This document shows positions 34,480 through 58,460 of a stretch of 64,000 nucleotides of DNA, piece after piece. The translations under genes and the position numbers were made by a program. Position 1 is the stretch's first letter. Every line of letters starts with the position of its first letter. Under the pieces are notes generated by a model, which was not told where the DNA came from, searched no databases, and saw nothing but the letters and a program-made list of their open reading frames with translations. Source of the DNA: an uncultured Acidobacteriaceae bacterium (GTDB lineage Bacteria; Acidobacteriota; Terriglobia; Terriglobales; Acidobacteriaceae); assembly GCA_964252445.1 (NCBI GenBank), contig CAXUND010000002.1, forward strand, positions 20,803-84,802, in the 5' to 3' direction.

Positions 34480-35766
34480 TCATCCTTTCGCCAGAGCCTG
34501 CGTACTCTTGCGGGCTACGGCTAGGCGGTGATGGATCACGACCAGCCGCACCGCCAGCGCCAGCCCGCCGCCGAGCACCGTACAGATGGCCCGCCGCCGC
34601 GCGATGTCCGACCCGGGCACGTTGTTGAGCGACAGCAGCATAACGATGTAGCTAGTTAGGCACAGACTGAACAGGGCATAGTTCACGTTCACCGTGCTAT
34701 AGGCCAGCCAGGCAAAGATCACGGTGAACAAGGCGAGGGCAACCGGCGCCGGATGCGTGTAAGCCAGAAACATGCTTGCCAGCACCGCTCCGGCGAGCGT
34801 GCCTACTGTACGCGCGATAGCGCGGTTAGCGGTATCGGAAAGGCCGGGCCGCAGCACCAGCAGGGCGGTCATCGGGATCCAGTAGCCGCTGGCGAAATGA
34901 GTCAGCCTGTAGACCTCGGTACTGAGACCCAGCACCACCGCCAGCCGCAGGGCATAGGGCACGGGCGAGTCCTTCAGGCTGCCTTGACGAAGGGTCATCA
35001 TCGCGATGCGGTAGGTCTCGCGTAGCGCTTCTTCCTCTTCACGCAGGTACCGGGCAAAGGCGAGGATGTTCCTCGACAACTCATGGAAGAGCCGCAGCAG
35101 CGCCGCGGAAACCAGCACTTGCACCATGGCTCCGGCCAAGATGAGGCTCGCCCGCACGGCTGCATCTCTGGGTGCGAAAGGAAACGCCGAGGCGACCAGC
35201 ATCATGACCGTGCACTGCTGGCCCACCCAGCTGAACCCGGCCGCCCGTGCTGACAGCATGCCGTAGCCGAAGCCGAAGCCGGCGGCGATCAGCACCAGTC
35301 CGAAGCCTTGATGCCCGGCCACCATGCCGATGAAGGTGGAGAAGGAGATGCCGATCGCGCACAGCATCATGGGCAGCAGGCGCGACTTATCGATGATGTG
35401 CTTCGCGCCGAAGCCGGTGGTCATTGCTCCGCTGGCGGCAATCATCCCGGCTGCCGCGTGGCCGGCAAGCAGCCCCACGCTCAGGCACAGCGCAATGGCT
35501 GCGACGAACAGAATGTCCGTCTTGAAGGTTCCCTCATCCCAGCGAAAGACGTAACTGTCACTGAGCAGGCGCGCGGTAATAGCCTTCTGCTGCGCTGTGG
35601 GCTGCGGGTCTGTCGCCCCTACCGCGGCTGCATGCGCCTGCCGGATTGTCTTCGCCGCCTCGCGCCCGCGTTCGATCGTGCTCACCGCACTGTCGGCGGC
35701 GTCCCGCTTAATCAGCACTCGCGCCTGTCCTCTCCGGCTCCCGCGTTTCGTCGCTTGCACCCACAA
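34480..35766 (-). CDS. FUSC family (fusaric-acid-resistance-like / aromatic acid exporter-like) membrane protein
   Basis: Polytopic membrane protein with a duplicated TM bundle. The start is uncertain: the ORF-track TTG at 35766 overlaps the otsA 3' end by 59 nt. Confidence 0.65.
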   Translation of the reverse strand: MWVQATKRGSRRGQARVLIKRDAADSAVSTIERGREAAKTIRQAHAAAVGATDPQPTAQQKAITARLLSDSYVFRWDEGTFKTDILFVAAIALCLSVGLLAGHAAAGMIAASGAMTTGFGAKHIIDKSRLLPMMLCAIGISFSTFIGMVAGHQGFGLVLIAAGFGFGYGMLSARAAGFSWVGQQCTVMMLVASAFPFAPRDAAVRASLILAGAMVQVLVSAALLRLFHELSRNILAFARYLREEEEALRETYRIAMMTLRQGSLKDSPVPYALRLAVVLGLSTEVYRLTHFASGYWIPMTALLVLRPGLSDTANRAIARTVGTLAGAVLASMFLAYTHPAPVALALFTVIFAWLAYSTVNVNYALFSLCLTSYIVMLLSLNNVPGSDIARRRAICTVLGGGLALAVRLVVIHHRLAVARKSTQALAKG

Positions 35767-37153
35767 AAGCCTGGAGCCAGGCGCCCAGGTGCGCCCGGCG
35801 CACCTGCGAACGGAGCTTCAGCATTCGCCGCCGTTGCTCCGGCTGATCCATTGCGAGCGACTTTGCCAGCACGTCGGCAACTTCCTGGTGGTCGTAGGGA
35901 TTGACCAGCAGCGCGCCCACCTTCAGCTCCGGTGCCGCCCCCGCAAATTCGCTCAGCACCAGGATGCCGTCATTCTCCTGGCGGCAGGCACAGTACTCCT
36001 TGGCCACCAGGTTCATGCCGTCCTTCAGGGGAGTGATTAGGGCCACGTTGGACGTTCGATAGAGCGCCAGCAGCTCCGTTCGTGGAAGCGCGCGGTGGAT
36101 GTAATTGATCGGCACCCAGCCCGGCTCTGCATACTCGCCGTTGACCTGAGTGACCAGCCGCTCGATCTCGGCCTTCAAGACCTGGTAGCCGGGGATGTTC
36201 TCGCGGCTCGGGACTGCAACCTGCACCAGGCAGGTCCTTCGGTGAAACTCGGGATGCTGCTTAAGGAACAGCCCGAAGGCTTTCAGCCGCTCCGGAATAC
36301 CTTTGGTGTAGTCGAGCCGATCAATGCCGAGGATGATCTTCACGTCGCGGAAATGCTGCTTCAACTCGGTGACCCGGCGGCGCACCTCGTCTGCGTCGGA
36401 AGCCTTGCGGAAATCCTCATAGTCGATGCTGATCGGGAACGCACCGACTACTGTCCGATGACGCCCGTGAACCACGGTTCGGCGGTCGCCCTCACGCTCC
36501 ACGGATAGATTGGGAATGAACGCCCGCAGGCAGGCGATGAAGTTTCTCTGGTCGCGCTGCGTCTGCAGCCCTACCAGATCATGCGCAAGCAGTCCTTCAA
36601 GCACCGCCTGCCGCCAGGGAAGCTTTTCGAAGATGTCGGGCGGCGGAAACGGGATGTGTAGAAAAAAGGCCAGCTTGGCTTTCGGTATTTTTCTGCGCAG
36701 GATCGGGGCGACCTGCATCAGCTGGTAATCGTTGATCCAGATGAGCGAATTCTTGTTGGCGATGCGAACGGCGGAGGCCGCAAACTTGGCGTTGACCTTG
36801 AGGTAAAACTCCCAGTAGCCGGGATCGAAGTTGCAGCGCGACTGCAGGTCATGGAAGAGCGGCCAGACGATCTCGTTCGAGAAGCCCTCGTAAAATTTAG
36901 CCTGCTCCTCGGGAGTTAGAAAGAGCGGCTCGTAGCGGTAGTGGTGTTCTTTCGAAAGTTTCGACAGCTCATCGGCGATGCGTGGATCTTCGTCGGTGCC
37001 GGCGGCGCCTACCCAGACGCCGCCATGCTCCTGCAGCAAGGGTTCGAGCGCGGTGACCAGTCCTCCGCTGGAGGCTTTAACGTGCAGCTGGTCGCCCTGC
37101 TTTTCAAACGACAAGGGCAGCCGGTTTGAGATGATCACCAGTTCGCGATTCAT
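35708..37153 (-). CDS. otsA: alpha,alpha-trehalose-phosphate synthase (GT20)
   Basis: The ATG at 37153 forms an ATGA overlap with the otsB stop. N-terminus [22 protein letters not shown], with GT20-wide similarity. Confidence 0.9.
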
Positions 37154-37998
37154 CCTCGACCCTCCTCGATAGCGTCCAGCCACTCGTCCAGGAAGCGGAG
37201 CAACTCTGTGGGCGGTCGCAGCCACGCATTTGCGCTCGTTGGCCGCGGCTCACCTCGGACCAGCAGAGACAGGCCGCGCCCTGCGAGTGCGCGAAAGGCA
37301 TCTTCGTCGGTGGTGTCGTCCCCAAGGTAGGCGACGGCTGTAGTCGCCGGTTCTGACGCGAGCACCGCGTCCACTGCGTGCGCCTTGGTGCGGTCTGCCA
37401 CTCGCAGCTCCATTCCGGACTCAAAGGGCATGACGGCAAAAGCTGCATGGCCGGCATGCGCGGTGAAAATCTCGCGGGCGATATGTTCAAAGGCGCGCGC
37501 CGCAATGGCATTGAGATTGCGCCAGTGCACGGCCACGCTGGCCGTCTTACGCTCTACCTCCTTCAGGTATCCGGCTGCATGGAGGGCTGCCGCGACGCGA
37601 TCGAGCGCGGCCACCGCTTCGTCATCGGCCTTGAACAGCTCGTAGGAGCCGTCAGCGGCGCGATGTTCCCGGCCGTGCGAGCCCCAGACCTCGATCTCCG
37701 AGGCGAGCGGCATCAGCGTCAGAAGCTCCCGCAGCGGGCGGCCGGAAACCAGCGCCAGGCTCGTCTTCCCGGCATGCATGCGCTCCAGTCGCTCAGATAC
37801 GCCCGGATACGGCAGCGCTTGCATTTTGTCTGCCATAAACGGGGCGAGCGTCCCATCGTAGTCACAGATCAGGAGCGGCCGCCGGGCTGCCCGCAGGCTG
37901 TCCAGGAACTGACCGCGTGCTGACATACACTCTGTAAACCACGCCGGCGGCGTCTCGGCATCGGTCATCGCTTCAGTCAACATGGTCGCTTGAATCAT
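37150..37998 (-). CDS. otsB: trehalose-phosphatase (HAD-IIB)
   Basis: The DYDGTL HAD motif I (LLICDYDGTLAPF) and LGDDTTDEDAF motif IV. Translationally coupled to otsA. Confidence 0.85.
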   Translation of the reverse strand: MIQATMLTEAMTDAETPPAWFTECMSARGQFLDSLRAARRPLLICDYDGTLAPFMADKMQALPYPGVSERLERMHAGKTSLALVSGRPLRELLTLMPLASEIEVWGSHGREHRAADGSYELFKADDEAVAALDRVAAALHAAGYLKEVERKTASVAVHWRNLNAIAARAFEHIAREIFTAHAGHAAFAVMPFESGMELRVADRTKAHAVDAVLASEPATTAVAYLGDDTTDEDAFRALAGRGLSLLVRGEPRPTSANAWLRPPTELLRFLDEWLDAIEEGRG

Positions 37999-44359: not shown

Positions 44360-44434
44360 TGGAGGCGCGGGCCGGGATCGAACCGGCGCATAAAGGTTTT
44401 GCAGACCTCTCCCTTACCACTTGGGTACCGCGCC
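44360..44434 (-). tRNA. tRNA-Cys (GCA)
   Basis: Hand-folded. 7-bp acceptor stem GGCGCGG/CCGCGCC, anticodon loop CUGCAAA, T arm GCCGG-TTCGATC-CCGGC, discriminator U, and encoded CCA. Confidence 0.92.
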
Positions 44435-44492: not shown

Positions 44493-44567
44493 TGGAGCGG
44501 GAGACGGGACTTGAACCCGCGACCCTCGCCTTGGCAAGGCGATGCTCTACCACTGAGCTACTCCCGC
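44493..44567 (-). tRNA. tRNA-Gly (GCC)
   Basis: Hand-folded. Acceptor GCGGGAG/CTCCCGC, D arm GCTC-AGTGGTA-GAGC, anticodon loop UUGCCAA, T loop TTCAAGT, and encoded CCA. Confidence 0.95.
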
Positions 44568-44580
44568 TTGGTACTCACTG

Positions 44581-44609
44581 AGTCTACTGAACGGGTTCGC
44601 CGGGGTCAA
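44581..44609 (-). promoter_or_regulatory. sigma70-like promoter for the tRNA-Gly/tRNA-Cys operon
   Basis: On the minus strand: TTGACC (44609-44604), a 17-nt spacer, then TAGACT (44586-44581), ending 13 nt upstream of the tRNA-Gly 5' end. Confidence 0.45.
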
Positions 44610-44636
44610 CTTGCCCACCCGACCACCATCCCCTGG

Positions 44637-47142
44637 TTACCGAGCCGTGGCCAGGGCGCCATCCGGCTGCATTGCCGAGTCTTTTGCCGCCTTGGCCAGC
44701 TCCTGGAGCTTTGCCCGCGCCCGCTCCACGTAGTCGCTCAGCGCGACGTCCTCGTTATTGTCAAAGCGGGCAATGGTCTGCTCGGACAGCCTCGCCGCCA
44801 GCTCCGTCTGCCCCGTGCTCTCGTAGATGCGCGCACCGCTCAGCAGTGCTTTGGCGACCTGTTCGCGAATCGCAGCCTCCGGCGAGTTCCCGAATCGCTC
44901 CACAAGGTCGGCATAGATCGGGATCGCCTCCTCCGGTTTGCCCATCTCGGTCATGGTCGCGCCGCGATTGAAGATCGTCCTGGCCACCTGCTTCTGCAGC
45001 AGCGGCTCGGTTGCCTGATCAAAGCGCCGCAGCAGCTCGGCGTATACCTCCATCTCCTCTTCACTGCGGCTCATGGTGCCCAGCGTATACCCCTTGCTCA
45101 GCAGCGCCTTGGCTACTTGTTCGCGCAATCCCAGTTCCTCGGCCGTGCCAAACTGCGCGACCACCTGGTCATACATGTCGATCGCGCCCTGCGGGTCGCC
45201 CGGAGAGGCCAGGGTTGCTCCCTTCAGGGTCATGCCTTTGGCTACCTGCTCCCGCAATCCCGGCTCGGGCGAATCCTTGAAGCGACGCACAAGCTCGTCA
45301 TAGTCGGCCATCTCTTCGACCCTTTCGCCCAGTGAGTTGCGGGCAATGCCGCGGTTCAGCAGCGCCTTGGCCACCTGTTCCCGCAGCGCGGGCTCGGGCG
45401 CAGCCGAATACCGCTCGATCAAATCTGTATATTGCAGCAACCCCTTCGGCATAGCGCTTCAACACCACCAGCGACCAGCCCTTGTTGTACATCGCAGTGG
45501 CAAGGTTCTCTACGATCACCGCGTCCGAGTCGTGATCGAAACGGGTCAGCAGCTCGGCGTACGGGCGCAGCGACTCCTCATTCCGATCCATCTGGTTCAA
45601 GAGCAAGCCCTTGTTGAACAGCGCCTTGGCCACCTGCTGCCGGATCTCGGGCTCCGTGGCCTGAGCGAAACGCTGCGCCAGCGAGCCGTAGGTGGCAATG
45701 GCCTCCTGCCGCCGGTTTAGGGCCTTCAAGGTCATCGCCCACCAGAACATGGCATCGGAGACCTGGATCCGGGTGGCTGAGTCTTGCTGATCCTGCTCGG
45801 AGAGCAGATCGGCGAGCTTCACTACGTCCTCATACCCTTCGAGCTCCTCGGCGCTGTTGTCATAGAGCCCGCGAGCCGCCTCCATCAAGGCGAACAGCGC
45901 CTCGCGCCGATCACCCATCGGCAGCGAATAGAAGTCTACGCGGCGTGCCTCCTGGATGGCCTTCCGGTGCTCACCCTTCGCCATCGCGGCGCGGAAAGGT
46001 ACCAGGCTGTCCGGGCCCACCCTTTTTTCTGAGTCACGTGCTGCCTTGACACGCTTAATGACTTCCTTGAAATTGTAGTCATCCGACGCCGTGATCCAGC
46101 GTTCCGCCGTGTCCAGCGCCTTCAGGCGCTCATAGAAAAAGTCGAGCGGATTTCGCATGAGCGGCGGCACCGGCAGTTCCAGCTGTTCGATAATCTCCGC
46201 AAAAACAACATCAGCTGGCAGCAGTTCGGGAACGCTCGACCCGGGCGTCGTCCGTGCAGATTGCTTGGCGCTCTCCCAGTTCGCCGGAGCGCTCTGAGCT
46301 CCCACTTCCGAAGCTCCGGCCTGTTTGAGGTCCTGCGGCATCTGGCCCCCGGATGGCACCTGCTCATCCGGCACGACGAAGTTGACGTCATCGCTCTCCT
46401 TCAGCCAGAGCGGCAGCTCGTCGATATCACCTCTGCGGTAGCAGAACCAGTAGATGGGCGTTCCCAGCGCTCCCACGGCCAAACGCTCCTTGAACGAGGT
46501 CATCAGGATGTCACCCTCCCAACCGCTGTAGCCCACCACCAGCGGCGAGTAGTTGGCCAGAGCCTGCGAAAGGGTGCGCAACATGGGCGCATTGCCGGAG
46601 CGCGCGGCGATCTCATTCTGCAGATTGCAGCAGTCATAGAACCAGAAGGACCCGTGCACATGGATGATCTGCAGGTTTTCCGACTCGATGTTCATCCTGC
46701 TTACGGTTTGCGGATGATCGCAGATCAGCGGCCGCTCTCCATAAAGCTCCAGAGCCTTGCTGAGCATCTCGTCGAAGTTCGTGGTGAAAACGGTTCGTGC
46801 CACACGGTCGGCCACAAGGATGCGCGCAAGTTTGTCATTGGCGCGCGAGATACTTACCTTCGACATGATGCTATCCAGGTATTTGCGCCGGGTGCGAGCC
46901 GAGGTGTACCCGCGCTGAAACCAGTGCGAATACCTTTCCATCATGGAGCGCCCGGTCGGCAGATCAGGGGTCTCGTAGTATTTCTTCGCGCGCTCGCGAC
47001 AATGCTTCTCGATGTCACCGGCGAGCGGAACCTCAGGCGCCGAGACCCCCGCACCCACAATGAAAAAGAACGGCGATCGCTCCTCCTGATCGACGATCTG
47101 ATGGATCTCGGAGACCGCTTTCTTCAAGCACATCTGGTTCAT
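44637..47142 (-). pseudogene. SIR2-like (SIR2_2/NADase-type) protein with C-terminal 43-residue repeat array, interrupted by a +1 nt frameshift
   Basis: ORF 45298..47142 (614 aa) carries the SIR2_2-type motifs FFFIVGAGVS, TTNFDEML, IIHVHGS and LVVGYSGWEGD, then helical repeats. ORF 44637..45452 (271 aa, other frame) continues the same repeats. Removing one G from the GGGG run (plus-strand CCCC 45441-45444) fuses them into an ORF of about 835 aa (..LKRYAEG/LLQYTDLIERY..). Confidence 0.65.
44680..45702 (-). repeat. array of at least 8 tandem 43-residue (129-nt) coding repeats
   Basis: Consensus Y-x2-L-x2-RF-x4-EP-x-[LI]-REQVAKAL-x-NKG-x2-L-x4-R-x-EE. Examples are YDELVRRFKDSPEPGLREQVAKGM, YAELLRRFDQATEPLLQKQVARTI and YADLVERFGNSPEAAIREQVAKAL. 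More degenerate copies probably extend to about 45850. Confidence 0.75.
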
Positions 47143-47175
47143 ACGCGCGACTCCAGCTGAACTGCGGACCGGAAA

Positions 47176-47203
47176 AGTATAAGAGAGTTCGTCCCGTTTT
47201 CAG
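47176..47203 (-). promoter_or_regulatory. weak candidate promoter upstream of the SIR2-like gene
   Basis: On the minus strand: CTGAAA, 16 nt, then TATACT, about 30 nt upstream of the ATG at 47142. The -35 match is poor. Confidence 0.2.
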
Positions 47204-47312
47204 ACAGTATTCAGCAGGCCATTGATCAGACTGGTGGTGGCTCAGGTTTTTGCGCCTGATCCATCCGGAACCAGGGTCATTTCACCTGAGACCCGCGGCG
47301 CAAGTGAGCATG

Positions 47313-48026
<714 letters not shown>

Positions 48027-48190
48027 GTTGTTCATTCGCCGACTCGCGGCCTGTTCCCCGACCAATTCTACGTCGGAGGCTCTACGCTTTTCCGGCGAGA
48101 ATCGCCACCCCGGAGACTTCGGTCACCATGCGGCCTAGTGGCGCGACTGTCTGCTATGAACTCAGGACGTTGATCTCCCATCGCGGAGCT

Positions 48191-55755: not shown

Positions 55756-56187
55756 ATGCGAACACTTTGGATTGCTGCTGTTGCTACCTTCCTCTTTTGC
55801 GCGAAAGCCCAAGCCGGCGGAGTTACAGGCGACTGGATTACACCCGGAACGGCAGCGGTGCGCATTTATCCTTGCGGGACGAACATCTGCCTGCGGCTTA
55901 TCCGGCTCGATCCAAAGCTCCCGGCGACCAGGGATATATACAACCCCGACACCACTTTGCGCAGCCGTCACCTGTGCGGACTGGATATCGGCTTTAATTT
56001 TCGCTCAGGTGCCGGAGACTCCGCATCCGGTGGTAAGTTATATGACCCGCAATCCGGTAAGACTTACAGCGGCAAGATGGTCGCGCAGGGAAATCTTCTT
56101 AAATTGCGAGGATATTATTTGATTCCGCTATTTGGCCGAACCGAGATATGGCATCGCTCGCCGCAGCCAGTCCAGCCCTGCGGCTAA
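55756..56187 (+). CDS. DUF2147 domain secreted protein
   Basis: Signal peptide plus GDWITP..GKLYDPQSGKTYSGKM..LKLRGY, typical of DUF2147. Confidence 0.75.
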   Translation: MRTLWIAAVATFLFCAKAQAGGVTGDWITPGTAAVRIYPCGTNICLRLIRLDPKLPATRDIYNPDTTLRSRHLCGLDIGFNFRSGAGDSASGGKLYDPQSGKTYSGKMVAQGNLLKLRGYYLIPLFGRTEIWHRSPQPVQPCG

Positions 56188-58460
56188 ACTTTTTGTGAAC
56201 GCTGAACATCCTGGACTCCATGGACGCGACGCAACCCCAGTACCATGCGGTCTAAGTGCCGCACATCTTCTGCCTCGACTGTAAGCTCGACAATCGCTGT
56301 ATCGTTCGGTCCGGAGCGAGTGTCAATCGACCGAATGTTAGTGTTTTCTTCGCTGATGATGGCCGTCATTTCCTTGAGCATGCCGGGACGATCATCGCAG
56401 AAGACGGTCAGCCGAACCGGGTAGGTACGGCGGCCGGCACTGGCAACCGTATCGCCGGCGGTTTTTCCCCACTCAACCGAGATGCGGCGATCGGACTCAT
56501 AGAGCAGGTTCTGCACGTTCGGGCACGATCGCCCGTGTACCGCTACGCCTTTGCCGCGCGTGACGTAGCCGATGATCTCCTCGCCCCGGATCGGGTTGCA
56601 ACATCGCGCCCGGTAGACCAGCATCTCGTCGTGCCCTTCCACCTGCAACGAGTCCGCGCCCGCAGACCCCGAGTGCAGTGTCAGCCGCTTGCCGGCTTCT
56701 GGGTCGAGCAGCGACTCGGTCTCCGGGGCCGGATGGTTCGACAAGATGCCCGGCGCCAGGCGATTGAGCACCTGCCGTGCAGAGTACTTGCCGAACCCGA
56801 TCGCCGCCATCAGATCGGCCGGCGTTGACAGGCTGTACTCAGCTGCAAGCCGCGCGTAATCGGACTCCTGAAATTTCGACAAAGCCACCTTGTACTTGCG
56901 CGCCTCGCGGTCCAGCAGCTTCCGGCCGATCTCGATTGCTCGCTCACGCTGGTGCTCGTTCAGCCAGTGCTTGATCTTGTTGCGCGCTCGTGAGCTCTTG
57001 ACGATTGAAAGCCAGTCGCGGCTAGGAGTGTGGCCGGACTGCGTGATGACCTCGACGATGTCCCCGTTACGCAGCTTCGCCCGCAGCGGGACGATACGCC
57101 CGTTCACCCGGGCGCCGGTACAGGCGTGGCCCACCTCCGTGTGCACCGAATAGGCAAAATCAAGCGGACTGGCATCCTTCGGCAGCACCACGACCTTCCC
57201 CTTCGGGGTGAAGGTGTACACCTCCTCCGGGTAGAGGTCGATCTTGAGCGTCGAGAGAAATTCGTTCGGGTCGGTCATCTCCCGCTGCCAGTCGACCAGC
57301 TGCCGCACCCAGGCCAGCCTCTGCTCATCGCGTGCCGAAATGGGCGAGCCTCCGGCCTTGTACTTCCAGTGCGCGGCGATGCCTTCTTCCGCGATGCGGT
57401 GCATCTCCTCGGTTCGAATCTGCACTTCGAACTGGTGCCCGTTCTCGCCCATCACGGTTGTGTGCAGCGACTGGTACAGATTGGGCCGCGGCATGGCGAT
57501 GAAGTCCTTGATGCGCCCCGGCACCGGCCTCCAGATCGAGTGGATCAAGCCGAAGACTGCGTAACAATCCGCAACCGTGTTGACGATCACACGCAGCGCG
57601 AGCAGGTCATACAGCTGGTCGACATTGGTGTCCGGACCTTTGATCTTCTGGTTGATCGAATAGAGCCGCTTCATCCGCCACTCGACCCGACCTTCGATCG
57701 AGTGCTCCCGCAGCTTGTCGGTGAGCATCTCGCCCACGCCCTCGAGGAACTGCTCGCCCTCATCGCGGCGCGACTCCACCTCATCATGAACGTACTGCCA
57801 GGCCGTAGGGTCGGTATAGCGGAAGGCGAGATCCTCAAGCTCGCCGCGCAGCTTACCCATGCCCAGCCGGTGCGCCAGGGGCGCGTAGATGTCGAGCGTC
57901 TCCTGCGCGATGGCTTGCTGGCGATCCGGCTTGAGGTGCTCGAGCGTGCGCATGTTGTGCAGCCGGTCCGCCAGCTTGATCAGCACGACGCGCACATCCG
58001 TGACCATGGCCAGCAGCATCTTGCGCACACTCTCCGCCTGGCGATCCACCCGGTTCGCAAACTGGATCTTGTCGAGCTTGGTGACGCCTTCGACAATGTG
58101 GGCGACCTGGTCACCGAAGCGCGCGCTGATGTCTTCGGTGGTCACCGGAGTGTCCTCCACCGCGTCGTGCAGCAGCCCGGCGGCGATTGCCGTGGAGTCG
58201 AGCTTCAACTCGGCGAGGACAAGTGAGACCTCCAGCGGATGAAGCACGTACGGCTCGCCCGAGGCGCGGAGCTGCCCCGCATGGTGCTCCAGGCAAAACG
58301 CCCACGCTCGGCGGATGATGTCGACGTCATCTCCGGGCCGGTTGGCACGGACCATCTTCAGCAGAAGTTCAAAGCGAGGGGCGAGGGCGTCCGGAGTGGA
58401 CACGAGGCCGGGCGCAAGCGGCGAAAGAGGATTTTCGGGTGGACGATGGGCCGTCGCCAT
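56184..58460 (-). CDS. rel: bifunctional (p)ppGpp synthetase/hydrolase (RelA/SpoT homolog)
   Basis: 758 aa with an HD hydrolase domain (HPLEV..LHDAVEDT), a RelA_SpoT synthetase domain, and TGS and C-terminal ACT regions. Confidence 0.93.
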   Translation of the reverse strand: MATAHRPPENPLSPLAPGLVSTPDALAPRFELLLKMVRANRPGDDVDIIRRAWAFCLEHHAGQLRASGEPYVLHPLEVSLVLAELKLDSTAIAAGLLHDAVEDTPVTTEDISARFGDQVAHIVEGVTKLDKIQFANRVDRQAESVRKMLLAMVTDVRVVLIKLADRLHNMRTLEHLKPDRQQAIAQETLDIYAPLAHRLGMGKLRGELEDLAFRYTDPTAWQYVHDEVESRRDEGEQFLEGVGEMLTDKLREHSIEGRVEWRMKRLYSINQKIKGPDTNVDQLYDLLALRVIVNTVADCYAVFGLIHSIWRPVPGRIKDFIAMPRPNLYQSLHTTVMGENGHQFEVQIRTEEMHRIAEEGIAAHWKYKAGGSPISARDEQRLAWVRQLVDWQREMTDPNEFLSTLKIDLYPEEVYTFTPKGKVVVLPKDASPLDFAYSVHTEVGHACTGARVNGRIVPLRAKLRNGDIVEVITQSGHTPSRDWLSIVKSSRARNKIKHWLNEHQRERAIEIGRKLLDREARKYKVALSKFQESDYARLAAEYSLSTPADLMAAIGFGKYSARQVLNRLAPGILSNHPAPETESLLDPEAGKRLTLHSGSAGADSLQVEGHDEMLVYRARCCNPIRGEEIIGYVTRGKGVAVHGRSCPNVQNLLYESDRRISVEWGKTAGDTVASAGRRTYPVRLTVFCDDRPGMLKEMTAIISEENTNIRSIDTRSGPNDTAIVELTVEAEDVRHLDRMVLGLRRVHGVQDVQRSQKV

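Follow-up and report, generated by a model that had tools for sequence, protein, structure and literature searches.

A frameshifted SIR2–TPR gene beside a tRNA-Gly/tRNA-Cys pair in an Acidobacteriaceae genome, a candidate single-gene NADase immune effector

In a 64,000-nucleotide stretch of DNA from an uncultured Acidobacteriaceae bacterium (assembly GCA_964252445.1, contig CAXUND010000002.1, positions 20,803 to 84,802; hereafter the window), we analysed a minus-strand gene that joins an N-terminal SIR2_2 domain to a C-terminal array of tetratricopeptide repeats (TPRs), and whose intact alleles are candidates for NAD+-degrading immune effectors. The parts of the gene, in window coordinates and with residues numbered on the repaired protein, are the following:

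44637 to 47142, minus strand: the whole SIR2–TPR gene, 834 amino acids once one surplus A is removed; as found, split into open reading frames (ORFs) of 614 and 271 amino acids
46363 to 47142, minus strand: SIR2_2 (SIRim-type) Rossmann domain, residues 1–260, delimited by Pfam, conservation, AlphaFold2 (AF2) and Foldseek
47041 to 47055, 46777 to 46779, 46771 to 46773 and 46654 to 46656, minus strand: predicted NAD+ site, formed by GAGxS (residues 30–34), N122, D124 and H163, respectively
46231 to 46362, minus strand: linker, residues 261–304, polar, disordered and poorly conserved
45778 to 46230, minus strand: all-helical middle domain, residues 305–455, from conservation and the AF2 model
44745 to 45777, minus strand: TPR-like array of eight 43-residue hairpins, residues 456–799, with a period of 129 nt, from Pfam and the model
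45432 to 45433, minus strand: frameshift site within TPR unit 3, AA in place of the lone A of the intact allele, located by alignment with the intact locus L088 and the frameshifted locus L087

The N-terminal region carries the SIR2_2 signature set that had been recognised in it by the original prediction, with GAGxS, N122, D124 and H163 at the very positions given there. Pfam SIR2_2 (PF13289) matches residues 117–246 (E=5.4e-11, 43.2 bits against a cut-off of 24.5); in 69 homologs, N122, D124 and H163 are invariant, and G30, A31, G32 and S34 of the GAGxS motif are at least 90% conserved. Over 69–120 homologs, the set of invariant or nearly invariant positions comprises N122, D124, H161, H163, G164, the GYSGW motif, D211, W232 and F233. 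The domain is modelled by AF2 with a predicted local distance difference test score (pLDDT) mostly between 80 and 97, and a Foldseek search of the PDB with a model of residues 1–460 (pLDDT 85.2) returned, as its top 50 matches, defence NADases throughout: SPARSA Sir2 (E=1e-10), KomC (template-modelling (TM) score 0.70–0.73), DSR2 (SIR2-only chains, TM ~0.66) and ThsA. At the sequence level, a profile search of the PDB gave the SPARSA Sir2 subunit as its sole match (E=4.5e-8), and the best PADLOC matches were to models of SIR2 proteins associated with prokaryotic Argonautes (Aga_SIR2, E=3.5e-25), restricted to residues 46–237 of the SIR2 core; matches to PDC-S65 were weak and those to ThsA marginal (E=0.006). 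Membership of the NAD-degrading class of SIR2 domains is well supported by these comparisons, with NADase activity as the predicted function.

The same data bear on an alternative in which the protein is a non-immune regulatory SIR2-like deacylase or ADP-ribosyltransferase, encoded by a stable chromosomal gene, whose TPR scaffold would recruit a substrate from the host in a setting such as stress or redox signalling. The canonical sirtuin family has no match among the 12 Pfam families listed, the domain has no CxxC zinc module, and none of the 50 top structural neighbours in the PDB (0/50) is a deacetylase, all of which argues against this alternative. Cysteines C48, C141, C171, C172 and C234 are 82–97% conserved across the family, inside a SIR2_2 class reported to be without the sirtuin zinc module, and could form a metal or redox site; four of them, the family-specific C48, C141, C171 and C234, would suit the regulatory alternative if they did.

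Behind the SIR2 domain, the full-length AF2 model (mean pLDDT 87.7) consists of the linker, the helical middle domain, eight hairpins and a terminal helix. The linker, first described as acidic, contains 3 D/E against 3 K/R; it is polar and modelled as disordered (pLDDT <50 at residues 262–304, column conservation 0.03–0.13). Within the middle domain, the segment 308–340 is strongly conserved, with P326 and P332 invariant. The array then runs with a period of exactly 43 residues in the protein and 129 nt in the DNA (repeat family D1), its eight units agreeing with the earlier count of at least eight copies of a helical repeat; pairwise identity between units is 14–51%, and the last helix is prolonged by residues 800–804, to position 44730. 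The repeat had also been called novel, but TPR_6 (E=3e-14, 53 bits, cut-off 26.3), TPR_12 (32 bits, cut-off 30.1) and TPR_14 (27.3 bits, cut-off 23.5) all score above their Pfam cut-offs, and the array is modelled as sixteen helices in eight hairpins (block pLDDT mostly 95–98) with a fold resembling consensus TPR superhelices (Foldseek, full-length model). Profiles and model together identify the repeat as a long-loop TPR variant made of ordinary two-helix hairpins. TPR variants of 42 residues are common. Two further searches yielded a sub-threshold YbgF TPR match as the only one in NCBIfam, and only generic TPR, Sel1 and SNAP-like matches among viral-protein folds in BFVD.

No NTPase, SLOG, APAZ or TIR module was found in the gene product by Pfam or in the AF2 model, P-loop, NACHT and NB-ARC families gave no Pfam match, and residues 305–834 are modelled without beta strands. 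Together with the lack of a corresponding partner gene at the locus, this upholds the earlier statement that the C-terminus does not follow a SLOG, TIR, prokaryotic-Argonaute or HerA arrangement.

In the window, the gene is found as two overlapping minus-strand ORFs, 45298–47142 (614 amino acids) and 44637–45452 (271 amino acids), which constitute one gene split by a +1 frameshift. A database search and cluster look-up recovered intact relatives of 834–842 amino acids at 99%, 85%, 76%, 67% and 66% identity; public records also contain the exact 614-residue truncated product. The closest relative, P0122 at locus L088, is an intact 834-residue allele, 99% identical to the window protein, and differs from the window gene by 22 substitutions besides the lesion. 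At the lesion the window gene reads GCTGCAATATAC and the intact allele GCTGCATATAC in the DNA alignment, and the repaired reading frame across the junction is ...KRYAEGVAAYTDLIERYS..., giving 834 residues in place of the 835 first proposed. A surplus G in the GGGG run at 45441–45444 was considered as the lesion and ruled out by this alignment, which shows the extra A at 45432/45433. Programmed frameshifting was also ruled out: the gene has no slippery motif, and the 99%-identical allele is intact. The full-length alignment and AF2 model were built with three wrong residues at the junction (567–569), which leaves the conclusions unaffected.

The frameshift is most likely a real, recent allele because a second assembly, L087 (ENA assembly ERZ5252279), carries the same extra A, one single-nucleotide difference from the window gene, the independence of the reads being unconfirmed. 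With the frame broken by the inserted A, the protein ends after 2.5 TPR units, and the window copy is therefore probably a recent, non-functional pseudogene. We consider it improbable that the frameshift arose in sequencing or assembly and that the organism has an intact, functional 834-residue gene. Such an error would fit a single-base indel with an intact allele at 99% identity, and both sequences seem to come from metagenome assemblies of low coverage (the L087 contig is labelled cov 8.6); however, the extra A recurs in L087, with the caveat on read independence just given, and the site is a two-base AA with no long homopolymer. A second close relative, P0121 and P0124 (JGI, 265,217-bp contigs), is seemingly split elsewhere, as judged from protein records only, into a 150-residue product that loses the frame after FDEMLSKAL and a 685-residue product that begins MNIESEKLQ. 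A split at another site suggests recurrent, independent disruption of the gene.

An exhaustive phmmer search with residues 1–460 against 1.84 billion cluster representatives returned 406 clusters at E<=1e-30, rising to 640 when the threshold was relaxed to E<=1e-10, and the matches listed are mostly 650–1100 amino acids long; the family size of ~400 clusters refers to clusters at 50% identity. A scan of 185,579 species, one genome each, yielded 102 loci, most of them in Acidobacteriota; the family is rare and held mostly by soil Acidobacteria. Its other holders are Planctomycetota, Myxococcota, Chloroflexota, Nitrospirales, Bacteroidota, Deinococcota, a Cohnella (Bacillota) and the archaeal Methanococcoides; the spread is patchy across phyla, and some genomes have two copies. 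All-against-all clustering of neighbouring ORFs across 87 loci found no conserved partner gene, in line with what had been read from the window alone, and the only recurrent clusters besides the gene itself were opposite-strand ORFs overlapping it.

Ratios of non-synonymous to synonymous substitution rates (dN/dS) are 0.09–0.16 for the whole gene (0.09 in the comparison with L088), 0.03–0.10 for the SIR2 domain and 0.13–0.26 for the TPR part, and are highest in the linker; they indicate that the gene has been under purifying selection since its acquisition. The SIR2 domain has changed about as little as the flanking genes, and the TPR array diverges fastest, with 60% identity in L005 against 83–88% for the flanking genes. 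A SIR2 domain of low dN/dS, conserved like its housekeeping flanks, would also be expected of a regulatory enzyme and counts in favour of that alternative.

The gene is bordered by the following features, with the tRNA pair lying directly downstream, as the original prediction had placed it:

44493 to 44567, minus strand: tRNA-Gly(GCC), 69 nt 3′ of the stop codon; ancestral right-hand border of the insertion site
44360 to 44434, minus strand: tRNA-Cys(GCA), downstream, on the same strand as the gene
47313 to 48065, minus strand: ABC-transporter ATPase gene (Pfam ABC_tran); ancestral left-hand border, outside the system
47176 to 47203, minus strand: sigma-70-like promoter match 34 nt 5′ of the ATG, a weak consensus match only

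The slot between the ABC-ATPase gene and the tRNA-Gly/tRNA-Cys pair is also where the orthologs at 99%, 85%, 76% and 67% identity are located, and the 66% ortholog (L007) lies downstream of the ABC-ATPase gene. For comparison with the empty site, we examined 80 metagenomic loci in which the ABC ATPase is 69–77% identical. In 36 of these, tRNA-Gly follows 32–157 bp past the ABC stop codon with nothing between; three of the 80 hold unrelated inserts, and none holds a SIR2–TPR gene. These 36 empty sites indicate that the SIR2–TPR gene is an accessory insertion, acquired and then kept by one sub-lineage, and not a core gene. Uniform core-genome synteny, which had been named beforehand as a pattern that would speak against a defence role, is accordingly confined to the closest clade and does not extend across the family. 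For the regulatory alternative, this result cuts both ways: the steady synteny of the 66–99% orthologs beside response regulator, ABC ATPase and peroxiredoxin genes is what it would predict, but the flanking genes predate the insertion and do not recur as partners at other loci.

Among the unrelated inserts, that of L112 (L112:1684-5317) measures 3.6 kb and encodes, besides ORFs without Pfam match, a regulator of the winged-helix (Trans_reg_C)+TPR type, and those of L137 and L159, in the same spacer, measure 374 bp and 615 bp. The spacer between the ABC-ATPase gene and tRNA-Gly (window 44567–47313) looks like a recurrent insertion spot in Acidobacteriaceae. No flanking direct or inverted repeats marking a mobile element were found, the only repetition being the internal 129-nt TPR periodicity, and the GC content of the gene is unremarkable. 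Codon usage does not support a foreign origin: the gene had been thought to use more T-ending codons than its neighbours, and the fraction of such codons (T3) is 0.151 in its N-terminal and 0.097 in its C-terminal part, within the range of 0.096–0.191 in neighbour genes. A second sigma-70-like match, again a consensus match only, lies at 44581–44609 on the minus strand, inside the 69-nt gap between stop codon and tRNA-Gly, and because of this position the tRNA pair may keep its own promoter after the insertion.

Further out, trehalose synthesis genes, GH31 and GH3 lie on one side, and beyond the ABC ATPase on the other come response regulator, peroxiredoxin, permease, pyrophosphatase, GlmS and RelA/SpoT genes. 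OtsA/OtsB (trehalose-6-phosphate synthase/phosphatase) and a full-length RelA/SpoT, at 35711–37998 and 56187–58460, belong to ordinary stress physiology and are unrelated. When the 47 other window ORFs were screened with PADLOC, single matches appeared to mad3 (E=1.7e-33), pVip (radical-SAM-like, 4e-16), PDC-S33 and mad8; these matches, reported per family and not per ORF, are probably generic housekeeping homologs.

Several relatives reside on or next to mobile elements. A Priestia megaterium plasmid encodes an 837-residue relative with 34% identity over residues 4–420. On an IMG/VR contig (L089; 1823–4408, 5133–8298), an 861-residue relative lies beside portal, capsid/capsid-protease and tail-tube genes, at what may be the edge of a prophage or of a gene-transfer-agent-like cluster; it is 34% identical over the SIR2 and middle domains and has no TPR Pfam match. 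In tblastn, the plasmid and IMG/VR relatives align as far as residues 379–420 and thus into the middle domain. A SIR2_2+TPR protein is encoded between integrase and Dcm methylase in a Haloferax pleolipovirus provirus, and in a Vibrio P2-like prophage int and cI flank a gene for a SIR2_2 protein. Toxin–antitoxin modules (BrnT/BrnA, HI1420-type antidote and SocA/Panacea) adjoin Acidobacteria members of the family, and others adjoin an Acaryochloris member, so that such modules are seen in two phyla:

L001, 9067 to 9899 and 13003 to 13972; L004, 9214 to 9540: toxin–antitoxin loci of Acidobacteria
L191, 9441 to 9994 and 12338 to 13437: toxin–antitoxin loci of Acaryochloris, with two ribbon-helix-helix (RHH)-ParE (RelB-ParE) pairs, HicB and HigB

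These neighbours raise a further alternative, that the protein is an NADase toxin in a conflict other than with phage, either in plasmid or island addiction or in stress-triggered dormancy, its TPR array responding to a protein of the host or of a mobile element. The adjacency of toxin–antitoxin genes in L001, L004 and L191, the one plasmid-borne relative and the fold of the NADase-class SIR2 domain are all consistent with such a toxin, and recurrent inactivation fits a costly one, but no antitoxin-like neighbour is conserved, and most members stand alone among chromosomal housekeeping genes. Its mechanism overlaps with that of a phage-sensing effector to an extent that sequence alone cannot tell the two apart; we rate this alternative as quite unlikely, and somewhat more so than the regulatory one.

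On balance, we favour the reading that the intact gene encodes a TPR-gated NADase immune effector, analogous to DSR2 and without the NTPase of Avs5. A phage-sensing suicide enzyme is plausible by analogy, with a presumed phage trigger and a presumed immune role. In such an enzyme the TPR array would bind a protein ligand, most likely a phage protein, ligand binding would free or assemble the SIR2 domains, and these would hydrolyse NAD+, leading to arrest of the infected cell. We favour this reading because of the identity of the domains, the conserved catalytic set, a fold likeness to defence NADases only, the single-gene organisation, the accessory insertion and the purifying selection; and, further, because of the patchy spread, the associations with mobile elements and toxin–antitoxin genes, and the two independent disrupted alleles among close relatives. 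The regulatory alternative is unlikely in our judgement: a patchy distribution across phyla, the presence of some relatives on mobile elements and the repeated disruption fit it poorly, even though the neighbourhood is not enriched in defence genes.

That last point is one of several that weigh against an immune effector. Within the clade, one chromosomal position has been kept while the flanks diverged to 83–97%, a steadier placement than that of many defence genes, and diversifying selection on the TPR array is not apparent from the averaged dN/dS. The surroundings in the window are housekeeping throughout (OtsA/B, GH31, GH3, ABC, Prx, GlmS, RelA/SpoT). Enrichment of defence genes near homologs, which the original prediction had put forward as a check, did not appear: PADLOC matches at E<=1e-8 fell on ~5–8% of 262 neighbour ORFs from ~60 loci against ~10% in a control of 47 unrelated window ORFs, rates that are rough owing to matches counted per family, crude gene calls and a small sample. 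Generic proteins, among them a likely DprA, sigma-54 activators and subtilases, account for many of the neighbour matches; the few that seem specific are to a type IV restriction enzyme, a TIR protein and LeoA/BC. Two more loci on long contigs have housekeeping surroundings only. Finally, DSR1, DSR2 and Avs gave no PADLOC match to the protein at E<=1, on the assumption that the DSR1 and DSR2 models are present in PADLOC-DB 2.0. Defence systems of Acidobacteria are poorly catalogued.

We put forward more tentatively, at a little less than even confidence, a stronger form of this reading, in which the protein is a minimal pattern-recognition receptor whose TPR superhelix gates the SIR2 NADase without an NTPase switch or a partner. 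The family, with its ~400 clusters and its centre in soil Acidobacteriota, would then amount to a new anti-phage system that is encoded by a single gene and absent from the PADLOC models searched. Metal or redox control through the cysteine cluster C48/C141/C171/C234 is a possible extra feature of such a receptor.

The architecture had been taken to be undescribed, which holds in part. No PADLOC model matched beyond the SIR2 core, and our literature search found no paper naming a SIR2–TPR or TPR–SIR2 family; the combination itself is already in public annotation, where relatives bear the JGI name 'TPR repeat protein/NAD-dependent SIR2 family protein deacetylase'. TPR is also one of the domains recorded as fused in a published SIR2_2 phylogeny (PMC12700824), and an immune function has been proposed for the entire SIR2_2/'SIRim' clade (bioRxiv 10.1101/2024.09.18.613514). 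If the intact alleles are ligand-gated NADases, they would be a simple, tractable addition to the SIR2 immune repertoire, consisting only of an effector and a regular TPR sensor, useful for learning how a repeat array alone switches SIR2 on and which phage proteins soil Acidobacteria sense. To our knowledge, almost no defence biology is known for Acidobacteria. Together with the intact allele, to which it is 99% identical, the frameshifted allele provides a natural matched pair for tests.

Among known systems, DSR2 of Bacillus subtilis offers the closest likeness in organisation: a single gene encoding an N-terminal SIR2 NADase, a flexible link, a helical middle part and a C-terminal alpha-solenoid of helical hairpins. 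The residues S34, N122, D124 and H163 match S51, N133, D135 and H171 of DSR2 (PMC11850899), which substantiates the earlier claim that the catalytic set is that of defence SIR2 NADases; in DSR2, mutation of N133 and H171 abolishes both defence and NAD+ depletion (PMC11850899; bioRxiv 10.1101/2021.12.14.472415). The mechanism proposed here, ligand binding that leads to NAD+ hydrolysis, follows what experiments have established for DSR2, whose HEAT-like solenoid binds the tail tube protein. DSR2 chains are also the top Foldseek matches of the full-length model, though at a TM score of ~0.25, so that the two proteins share an order of parts and no rigid shape; sequence identity is 10–13%, and a regular 43-residue TPR array stands here in place of the irregular HEAT-like repeats of DSR2.

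By sequence and fold of the SIR2 domain, the closest relative is the Sir2 subunit of SPARSA (SIR2-APAZ, e.g. Geobacter GsSir2; PDB 8in8, 8jkz, 8y80), but the match is confined to residues 46–239 and the gene product lacks APAZ; no Argonaute gene was found among the PADLOC-screened window ORFs or as a recurrent neighbour. ThsA of Thoeris shares the SIR2_2 fold (7uxt is among the top 50 Foldseek matches), whereas the C-terminus here is TPR without a SLOG domain, and no TIR-related family that would indicate a ThsB partner occurs among the PADLOC matches of the 47 other window ORFs. KomC of Kongming likewise shares the SIR2_2 fold, at the TM scores given above, but the KomA/B partner was not found. 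Unlike in SIR2-HerA, the neighbours are an ABC ATPase and tRNAs, with no HerA helicase gene adjacent. Long-period arrays of the kinesin-light-chain/TPR_12 type, which are common in STAND sensors, are likewise built of two-helix hairpins of ~42–43 residues, whereas the array here is attached directly to a SIR2 effector. In Avs5/SIR2-STAND, an N-terminal SIR2 effector and a C-terminal TPR-type sensor are joined in one polypeptide (PMC11897194, PMC12931631); the SIR2–TPR protein likewise holds effector and sensor in one chain, but the NTPase (STAND, P-loop) module of Avs5 was not found in it. As a concept, a TPR-gated SIR2 enzyme of this kind would extend the logic of DSR2 and Avs5 rather than introduce a new principle.

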